From: Escherichia coli
Lineage (GTDB): Bacteria; Pseudomonadota; Gammaproteobacteria; Enterobacterales; Enterobacteriaceae
Reading direction: 5' to 3' (one strand)
Assembly: GCF_003334765.1 (NCBI RefSeq)
Contig: NZ_QOWT01000001.1
DNA: 64,000 nt
Position 1 is the stretch's first letter. Each line of letters starts with the position of its first letter. The translations under genes and the position numbers were made by a program. Below, piece by piece: positions 47,455 to 47,526 of the stretch. Under the pieces are notes generated by a model that saw only the letters and a list, made by a program, of their open reading frames with translations, did not search any database and had not been told where the DNA came from.

Positions 47455-47526
47455 GCCGGAGATAAGCGCCGGATGGGGTAGAAACCCTTAAGCCTGTGTC
47501 GCACAGACTTAAGGGTTTTCTTATTT
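47455..47526 (+). ncRNA. rydB: Candidate RydB small RNA (3' end defined by terminator)
   Basis: Plus-strand hairpin cccttaag...cttaaggg followed by ttttcttattt, about 190 bp after ydiH; K-12 places rydB between ydiH and sufA; 5' boundary is a guess. Confidence 0.35.

Follow-up and report, generated by a model that had tools for sequence, protein, structure and literature searches.

RydB (synonyms tpe7 and IS082) is a small RNA (sRNA) of Escherichia coli, encoded by gene b4430 and described by Rfam family RF00118; about 25 years have passed without an established function for it. RydB has been classed as Hfq-independent (PMC3933206), and in Hfq co-immunoprecipitation it was enriched 2.5-fold (4 versus 10 reads), compared with 7.7-fold for RprA and 49-fold for RydC. 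Plasmid assays suggest that RydB is activated by RcsB and repressed by FNR; it is repressed by guanosine tetraphosphate (ppGpp) in Salmonella, its level falls 20-fold after azidothymidine (AZT) in an SspA-dependent manner, and it belongs to the SoxR-dependent paraquat response set. Here we analyze a 64,000-nucleotide stretch of E. coli DNA (contig NZ_QOWT01000001.1; hereafter the window), which carries rydB on its plus strand between ydiH and sufA.

We consider it probable that transcription of rydB starts at G47426, is terminated within 47481-47526, and yields an RNA that is cut back to 61 nt and acts in trans through a folded core. Transcription would be driven by a promoter of the extended -10 type (TGaGATTAT, 47410-47418); the transcript would run through a conserved 54-nt core and stop at an intrinsic terminator. 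This primary transcript, about 95-100 nt long, would then be cut and/or trimmed to position 47486 to leave a very abundant RNA. The core would be the functional unit, working independently of Hfq, and once folded it would be recognized by a conserved cellular component and not act through short seed pairing with mRNAs.

Identity and ends of RydB

The locus is the already known, annotated sRNA gene rydB. A scan of the whole window with Rfam models found a full-length match to RF00118 at 47426-47486 on the plus strand (81.6 bits, E 9e-18, model positions 1-61 of 61; the gathering score of the model is 50 bits), and in a permissive scan of 47200-47820 rydB was the sole match. The interval between ydiH and sufA is 100% identical to that of E. 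coli K-12 MG1655. The window is the reverse complement of NC_000913.3 (window position = 1812194 - K-12 position, anchored on sufA), and the curated rydB annotation in that record (1764713..1764780, complement, 68 nt) corresponds to 47414-47481 on the plus strand of the window. The identification follows from the Rfam score, the K-12 annotation and the identity to MG1655 taken together. It bears out the initial annotation, which had proposed a RydB-like sRNA between ydiH and the suf promoter and had named an Rfam alignment as one way to check it.

Published maps define both ends of the RNA. In the supplement of a Salmonella differential RNA sequencing (dRNA-seq) study (PMC3963941), the row for the RydB transcription start site (TSS) gives a string from -50 to +1 that ends in ...TTTATGAGATTATTCTTATG. 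The last base of such strings is +1, a register that we checked on the RybB and RydC rows; the Salmonella TSS is the first G of GCCCC, equivalent to window position 47426. In E. coli, Term-seq (PMC7815308, supplementary file 1) lists a single curated 3' end in the intergenic region, at 1764708 on the minus strand. With the register checked on a tRNA row, this end corresponds to 47486, and it was found in all three growth conditions. Together the TSS and the 3' end give exactly the Rfam boundaries; given these two ends, mature RydB is most likely a 61-nt RNA spanning 47426-47486 (+).

The 3' end at 47486 collects 2.17, 4.14 and 2.79 million Term-seq reads in the three conditions, compared with about 0.4 million for 6S RNA, about 0.15 million for RybB, 0.04-0.09 million for Spot 42, 0.002 million for RprA and 3.5 million for the tRNA aspV; such counts are biased by ligation and RNA size, and "very abundant" is to be read as semi-quantitative. 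Whereas the 3' ends of RybB, Spot 42 and RprA lie in terminator U-tracts, that of RydB does not: position 47486 is 7 nt past the closing helix of the core, within the 5' arm of the downstream hairpin, and the terminus reads AGAAACC, with no U-tail and no terminator hairpin.

The published maps thus support a discrete small transcript, as the initial annotation had expected, but not the one it outlined. It had placed an sRNA of about 70 nt at 47455-47526 and let it end in a hairpin with a U-rich tail. The transcript starts at about 47426 instead of about 47455 and ends at 47486, the proposed segment contains just the last 32 nt of RydB plus the hairpin, and the mapped abundant 3' end precedes the hairpin loop.

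The end positions also have corrective value for current annotations. The curated K-12 interval (47414-47481) is at odds with Rfam, the Salmonella TSS and the E. coli Term-seq end, and 47426-47486 is the best-supported extent; the annotated 5' end at 47414 is probably imprecise because it lies inside the -10 element. In RefSeq genomes annotated with the Prokaryotic Genome Annotation Pipeline (PGAP), rydB is missing altogether, with no feature at the locus. The gene is present as a single copy in 5422 of 5426 complete E. coli genomes.

Core, promoter and terminator

The 54-nt core of RydB (47426-47479, +) is near-invariant in 119 loci, comprising 74 genomic loci from an exact-pattern scan and 45 viral contigs. 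In an alignment of 57 unique cores, 38 columns are invariant, and variation is limited to four or five nucleotides of the P2 loop, one junction base and the closing helix. It is this closing helix, P1 (47426-47430 with 47475-47479), that shows covariation: compensatory changes occur at three of its five pairs (13 cells), and 98.9% of cells are paired. CG changes to UA at two positions (in 2 and 6 sequences), the terminal pair is GC, GU or AU, and none of 500 shuffles reached the covariation score. The predicted helix P1 is supported by these compensatory changes. The two inner helices, P2 (47438-47440 with 47452-47454) and P3 (47456-47459/47461 with 47467/47469-47472), are invariant.

Insertions and deletions of 1-3 nt in the P2 loop argue against a coding role for the core, and the only open reading frame (ORF) overlapping rydB is a mechanical one of 35 amino acids on the minus strand. 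We also dropped the idea of a CsrA sponge. E. coli RydB has two GGA motifs, but the second, CCGGAUGG, is CCGGGUGG in most species; a literature search returned no paper tying RydB to CsrA or ProQ.

A conserved upstream module (47341-47425, +), which we take to be the promoter, travels with the core. About 75 nt of upstream sequence accompany the core in at least 90 of 118 loci as a T1-type module, and they do so in all kinds of context. The conserved blocks are AATA (at about -60), GCA (at about -46), GTTAAA (-39 to -34) and TGAGAT.AT (-16 to -8). The GTTAAA block (47387-47392, +; at least 80% conserved among 75 unique upstream sequences) may be a factor-binding site, because its spacing would be poor for a sigma70 -35 element. 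The last block holds the extended -10-like element TGaGATTAT (47410-47418, +; TG at 47410-47411 and hexamer at 47413-47418), which lies within an imperfect DNA palindrome, TGAGATTATTCTTA (47410-47423). The pattern TGnGAnnAT is conserved and ends 7-8 nt before the core in most loci, and in Salmonella the mapped TSS is 7 nt past the -10 hexamer; this geometry is consistent with an extended -10 promoter. A simple -35/-10 scan made no call for the rydB -10 element.

In the 90 or more loci that carry it, the module includes two palindromic blocks. One, ATTAGCnnGCTAAT, lies at about -70 and is degenerate in E. coli; the other, TGAGAAT/ATTCTTA, overlaps the -10 region and may be akin to RcsAB and UvrY/GacA boxes.

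The module also holds the left arm of an inverted repeat that the initial annotation had placed in the sRNA segment. Both arms, CTTATC at 47420-47425 and GATAAG at 47461-47466, are present in the DNA, and the repeat extends to 9 nt (CTTATCGCC/GGAGATAAG, 89% complementarity). It is not a feature of the RNA, however, because CTTATC belongs to the promoter and lies before the TSS or across it. Nor is the pairing conserved, since GATAAG is invariant while the left arm differs among species (CTTATC, CTTATG, CTTACG, CTCATG). By our own estimate, a stretch of about 130 nt would contain about two inverted 6-mer pairs of this kind by chance alone.

Downstream of the core lies an intrinsic-terminator-like hairpin (47481-47519) with a U-rich tail, together spanning 47481-47526 (+) and supported by both folding and covariation. 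A repeat search gave arms of 17 nt (47482-47498 and 47502-47518) with 94% complementarity and a 3-nt loop, and folding of 47480-47526 gave a stem of 12+5 bp (47481-47492 with 47508-47519, and 47494-47498 with 47502-47506). The hairpin, which the initial annotation had rightly seen together with its tail, has a folding energy of -22.0 kcal/mol against a shuffle mean of -7.1 (z = -6.5), and none of 200 shuffles was as stable; the tail reads UUUUCUUAUUU. A simple terminator scan did not call the hairpin, presumably because of its internal mismatch.

A hairpin with a T-tract follows within 100 nt of the core in 104 of the 118 loci that have enough downstream sequence, and the sequences of these hairpins are unrelated between clades, one terminator standing in functionally for another. 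Escherichia, Salmonella, Citrobacter and Leclercia have AACCCUUAAG...CUUAAGGGUU, Klebsiella and Raoultella have GCCCCUGCA...UGCAGGGGC, and Pantoea and phages have AGGYCGCC...GGCGGCCU. Within the clade that carries rydB beside suf, the pairing of the terminator stem is preserved by compensatory changes. The hairpin is kept together with the core in Leclercia and Silvania loci that lack ydiH and in Citrobacter loci where 1.8 kb separate ydiH from the core. Because it is kept where ydiH is absent or distant, the hairpin is part of the rydB unit. The outcome that would have undone the original sRNA proposal, a hairpin that serves only to end ydiH transcripts, does not hold. We conclude that the rydB primary transcript most likely terminates at 47481-47526, an element that lies outside the abundant mature RNA. 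Salmonella rydB is listed as 105 nt long, which fits a transcript running from the TSS to the U-tail.

In the suf-context clade, the terminator also resembles the start of the core. Its 5' arm, AACCCTTAAG (47483-47492), resembles the core 5' end, GCCCCTTCAAG (47426-47436), and its 3' arm, CTTAAGGGTT (47508-47517), could pair either with the core 5' end or with the terminator 5' arm; this was observed in that clade only.

Genomic contexts of the RydB cassette

We take the family description to give a range of E. coli, Shigella and Salmonella; the range observed here is far wider, with at least 12 genera, megaplasmids and prophages. The ydiH-suf context is found only in Escherichia, Salmonella, Citrobacter, Leclercia, Silvania and Pseudenterobacter, and the cassette occurs in at least six unrelated chromosomal contexts beyond it (loci L003-L076). 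In Klebsiella, the core lies downstream of patD; in Pantoea, Erwinia and Enterobacter, it lies between a MalX-like phosphotransferase system (PTS) gene and a LysR gene; in Pantoea, it is also found beside a BLUF-EAL gene, which is convergent with it, and upstream of a lipopolysaccharide (LPS) heptosyltransferase gene. Megaplasmids of Pantoea and Rahnella carry the core, and two Pantoea genomes have two copies each (L012/L013 and L010/L024). No tRNA genes were found near the chromosomal copies outside the suf context. The same promoter and core recur in unrelated surroundings, in some of which the next gene is convergent; this suggests that the cassette is an autonomous unit acting in trans.

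Some copies show local rearrangements. In many Citrobacter genomes (L003, L005, L008, L009, L018, L029 and others), about 1.8 kb lie between ydiH and rydB, shifting ydiH to about -2190 rather than -360, and in Salmonella diarizonae (L050) about 1.5 kb are inserted between rydB and sufA. A 300-bp contig of a 'Microvirga antarctica' assembly (L052) carries a core and terminator; its core matches those of Salmonella L032 and L050, and the contig is probably assembly contamination.

Cores also occur in prophages of Enterobacter ludwigii, Pantoea sp. RIT-PI-b, P. wallisii and P. stewartii (among L040, L027, L067 and L006), where they lie downstream of genes for Q-like antiterminators (phrog_943, E 7.5e-82; phrog_753, E 2.9e-54) and upstream of holin and endolysin genes. 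The 45 viral contigs with a core come from IMG/VR (L077-L121), and all of them lack suf, ydiH and menI. In 41 of the 45, homologues of holin and/or endolysin genes follow 0.2-1.4 kb downstream on the same strand, and a Q gene is detectable upstream of the core in 9. The phage copies match the Rfam model over its full length with 76-80 bits, and some of their cores are identical to chromosomal ones. No core was found in sequenced phages (INPHARED, 50,697 records); the link to phages comes from IMG/VR predictions and prophage regions of genomes. A literature search returned no paper that connects RydB with prophages.

The order in contig L096 is Q, a pR'-like promoter with a short terminated leader, STnc100, the RydB cassette and holin. 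STnc100 (RF02076; 2320-2499, minus strand), with a TATAAT promoter and a terminator of its own, comes just before the RydB cassette. In this contig RydB appears as a self-contained RNA moron, because a cassette with its own promoter stands between STnc100 and holin. We had considered the core as a lambdoid pR' leader; this candidate is weakened by L096, in which a separate pR'-like promoter, leader and terminator lie upstream. In L079, STnc100 (4653-4835, plus strand) lies 1.45 kb upstream of the RydB cassette, and in both contigs two sRNA genes stand in tandem in the interval between Q and the lysis genes.

In eight viral contigs (L087-L091, L085, L109 and L111), the core lies in a cluster of tRNA genes on the same strand (Gly-TCC, Asn-GTT, Phe-GAA), with a recurring layout of tRNA-Gly, 5 nt, tRNA-Asn, 61 nt and core. 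Since the usual promoter module is absent from most of them, these copies may be co-transcribed and processed with the tRNAs. Contig L085 also has a degenerate copy of the core at 1383-1447 (TACCCTTCAAGAGCTAAGTTATTGCGTGTGCCGCAGATAAGCGCCAGCC...), directly before a tRNA-Asn gene; its P3 pairing is lost, and it has probably decayed.

We regard it as possible, if on balance doubtful, that RydB is a horizontally mobile, phage-associated stable RNA and no lineage-specific riboregulator. The invariant core would be carried between Q and the lysis genes of lambdoid prophages, either as a moron with promoter and terminator or in tRNA clusters; it would have been fixed independently at several chromosomal sites, including ydiH-suf, and would be matured like a stable RNA. 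Instead of pairing with mRNAs, it would act on a conserved component of the host as its ligand or decoy, candidates being RNA polymerase and factors that process RNA or handle tRNAs, among others. What we observe is the distribution; how the cassette moved and how it acts belong to the proposal. In E. coli genomes there is essentially never a prophage copy of rydB, and the copy in the window is chromosomal and single, without phage genes nearby; it is the relatives of this copy that sit in prophages as morons.

In the window, rydB has the same strand as both of its neighbours, ydiH (coding sequence 47072-47260, +) upstream and sufA (formerly ydiC; coding sequence 47808-48176, +) downstream. 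We looked at ydiH as a possible phage remnant and obtained no PHROG match. An imperfect inverted repeat (CGACCTGGA...TCCAGGTTCG, 47291-47319) begins 30 nt past the ydiH stop codon; it has no U-tract, and no Term-seq 3' end is recorded there. The rydB promoter lies within the upstream control region of suf, and rydB deletions may affect suf in cis. We take the OxyR-binding element for suf induction to lie at about -236 to -197 from the suf start, which would map to 47389-47428. If this element coincides with the rydB promoter and 5' end, rydB deletions, including those with hydrogen peroxide (H2O2) phenotypes, could act on suf in cis. A promoter scan matched a sufA promoter at 47591-47618 (+; ATCACA-16-GATAAT), whose sequence is that of the constitutive RpoD promoter published for sufABCDSE (PMC3946193). 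Other RNA features found by Rfam in the window are RprA, the rpoS regulator (RF00034; 41715-41822, minus strand; 118.5 bits, full length), 5.6 kb from rydB, the Phe leader (RF01859; 12918-13042, +; 75 bits) and STnc540 downstream of ihfA (RF02082; 16883-17041, +; 67.4 bits).

Mode of action and related RNAs

With moderate confidence, we favor recognition of the folded core over seed pairing, because stems and loops are almost totally invariant across Enterobacterales and prophages, and because RydB has no U-tail, associates weakly with Hfq and appears to mature like a stable RNA. Several points weigh against the scheme of start, termination, processing and trans action set out at the beginning. 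P2 and P3 never vary and hence give no covariation evidence on the inner fold, and the minimum free energy (MFE) of the core is no better than that of shuffles (z -0.01), with an MFE fold unlike the Rfam fold. Because the exact search pattern prescribed 22 positions of the core, apparent invariance is inflated and divergent relatives are missed; the positions left free in the pattern (the P3 stems, GCC, GAGUG and the 3' strand of P1) are likewise nearly invariant. The 5' end is based on Salmonella and on conservation, and the curated K-12 5' end differs from it by 12 nt. The curated Term-seq list has no 3' end at the U-tail (K-12 17646xx), and termination there and subsequent processing are what we infer; the missing U-tract end fits either rapid processing of a terminated precursor or non-use of the terminator. 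The abundance of the RNA is, as said, semi-quantitative. As of 2024, RydB has no known target or transcription factor, and the sole effect reported for it is a lower expression of rpoS with multicopy RydB, from the paper that described its discovery.

The main rival to processing is direct release at 47486, where a factor-assisted, non-canonical pause or termination would occur 7-8 nt past the closing helix; the hairpin would then be a back-up insulator that stops read-through from ydiH or rydB into the suf control region. The distance between 47486 and the helix is indeed typical of hairpin-dependent release, and this explanation accommodates the lack of a recorded 3' end at the U-tail. However, AGAAACC follows the helix in place of a U-rich tract, the helix itself is just 5 bp long, and the canonical terminator that follows soon after the core at nearly every locus is hard to explain if the core terminates transcription by itself; we consider direct release distinctly unlikely. 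There is hardly any chance that the RNA is a classical terminator-ended sRNA spanning about 47455-47526, with the hairpin and U-tail at its 3' end. No promoter or TSS lies near 47455, the TSS equivalent being 47426, the Rfam model and the K-12 annotation begin 29-41 nt upstream of it, and the single mapped 3' end is 47486, even though the hairpin and its tail are real and the 105 nt listed for Salmonella indicate that a terminator-ended precursor probably exists.

Other explanations concern what the RNA does. A classical antisense riboregulator would pair through the single-stranded UUCAAGAGCUAAGCC with mRNAs such as rpoS, lowering their translation or stability. The literature repeatedly calls RydB a negative regulator of rpoS, and phenotypes of deletion and overexpression have been reported, including persister and H2O2 phenotypes of rydB deletion mutants in a preprint. 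Yet RydB is Hfq-independent, the mature RNA has no U-tail, its invariance far exceeds that of a seed, no target is known, and in an overexpression screen it had no effect on biofilm or motility. We compared duplex energies with the K-12 rpoS leader, at full length and in 20-nt windows, with those of dinucleotide shuffles; RydB gave a windowed z of +1.0, in a scan that also missed the positive control RprA (z -0.6 and -0.2). We judge an antisense riboregulator unlikely, while granting it a real chance. A cis-acting leader (a riboswitch, attenuator or antitermination element), which would govern read-through into suf or phage lysis genes, seems very unlikely to us. The layout would suit it: a promoter is followed by a three-way-junction-like core with invariant junctions, a terminator and then genes, a lysis cassette follows on the same strand in 41 of the 45 viral contigs, and in the suf clade the resemblance of the terminator 5' arm (AACCCUUAAG) to the core 5' end (GCCCCUUCAAG) permits alternative pairing. 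But the downstream genes are unrelated (suf, a LysR regulator, a heptosyltransferase, lysis genes) and sometimes convergent, sufA is served by a promoter of its own 165 nt farther downstream, and the cleaved-off core reaches very high levels. Since terminator sequences are not conserved between clades, there is no common switch; on these grounds we rejected the riboswitch or attenuator reading. For a trans-acting folded core, the invariance of the whole core, the stable-RNA-like maturation and the travel with prophage late regions and tRNA clusters offer handles for finding the partner of RydB.

Among described RNAs, the closest to the window copy is rydB itself: the two share the RF00118 model, the neighbours ydiH and sufA, and a sequence identical to that of K-12. 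Hfq-dependent sRNAs such as RprA, RybB and Spot 42 have their own promoters, intrinsic terminators and stress-linked expression, and so does RydB. In contrast to these sRNAs, mature RydB lacks the terminator hairpin and U-tail, is weakly enriched with Hfq, and is conserved over its whole core instead of a seed; by these features it does not belong to the Hfq-dependent class.

Lambdoid phages carry RNA genes or morons between Q and the lysis genes, including the tRNA genes of Stx phages, DicF, IpeX and the 6S transcript of lambda pR'-tR'. The phage copies of RydB are similar in having their own promoter and terminator, in lying between Q and holin or endolysin genes, and in occurring near STnc100 or tRNAs; the E. 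coli gene differs in being chromosomal, universal and syntenic, and not in a prophage. Other phage RNAs are processed from longer transcripts, namely the stable RNAs species 1 and 2 of the T4 tRNA cluster and the immunity RNAs P1 C4 and P4 CI. By analogy, the promoter-less RydB cores that follow tRNA-Gly and tRNA-Asn would need excision by host RNases. We detected no sequence or model similarity between these RNAs and RydB, whose processing is our own proposal.

A further comparison is with processed stable RNAs, 6S RNA and tRNAs. RydB has no match to a tRNA or 6S model, is 61 nt long and has no CCA end, and we know of no role for it with RNA polymerase or the ribosome. Like these RNAs, however, it has very high numbers of 3'-end reads, a 3' end away from the terminator U-tract and a compact fold with a terminal closing helix, and some of its phage cores lie in tRNA clusters. 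In these respects RydB looks like a processed, Hfq-independent stable RNA and not a classical pairing sRNA.

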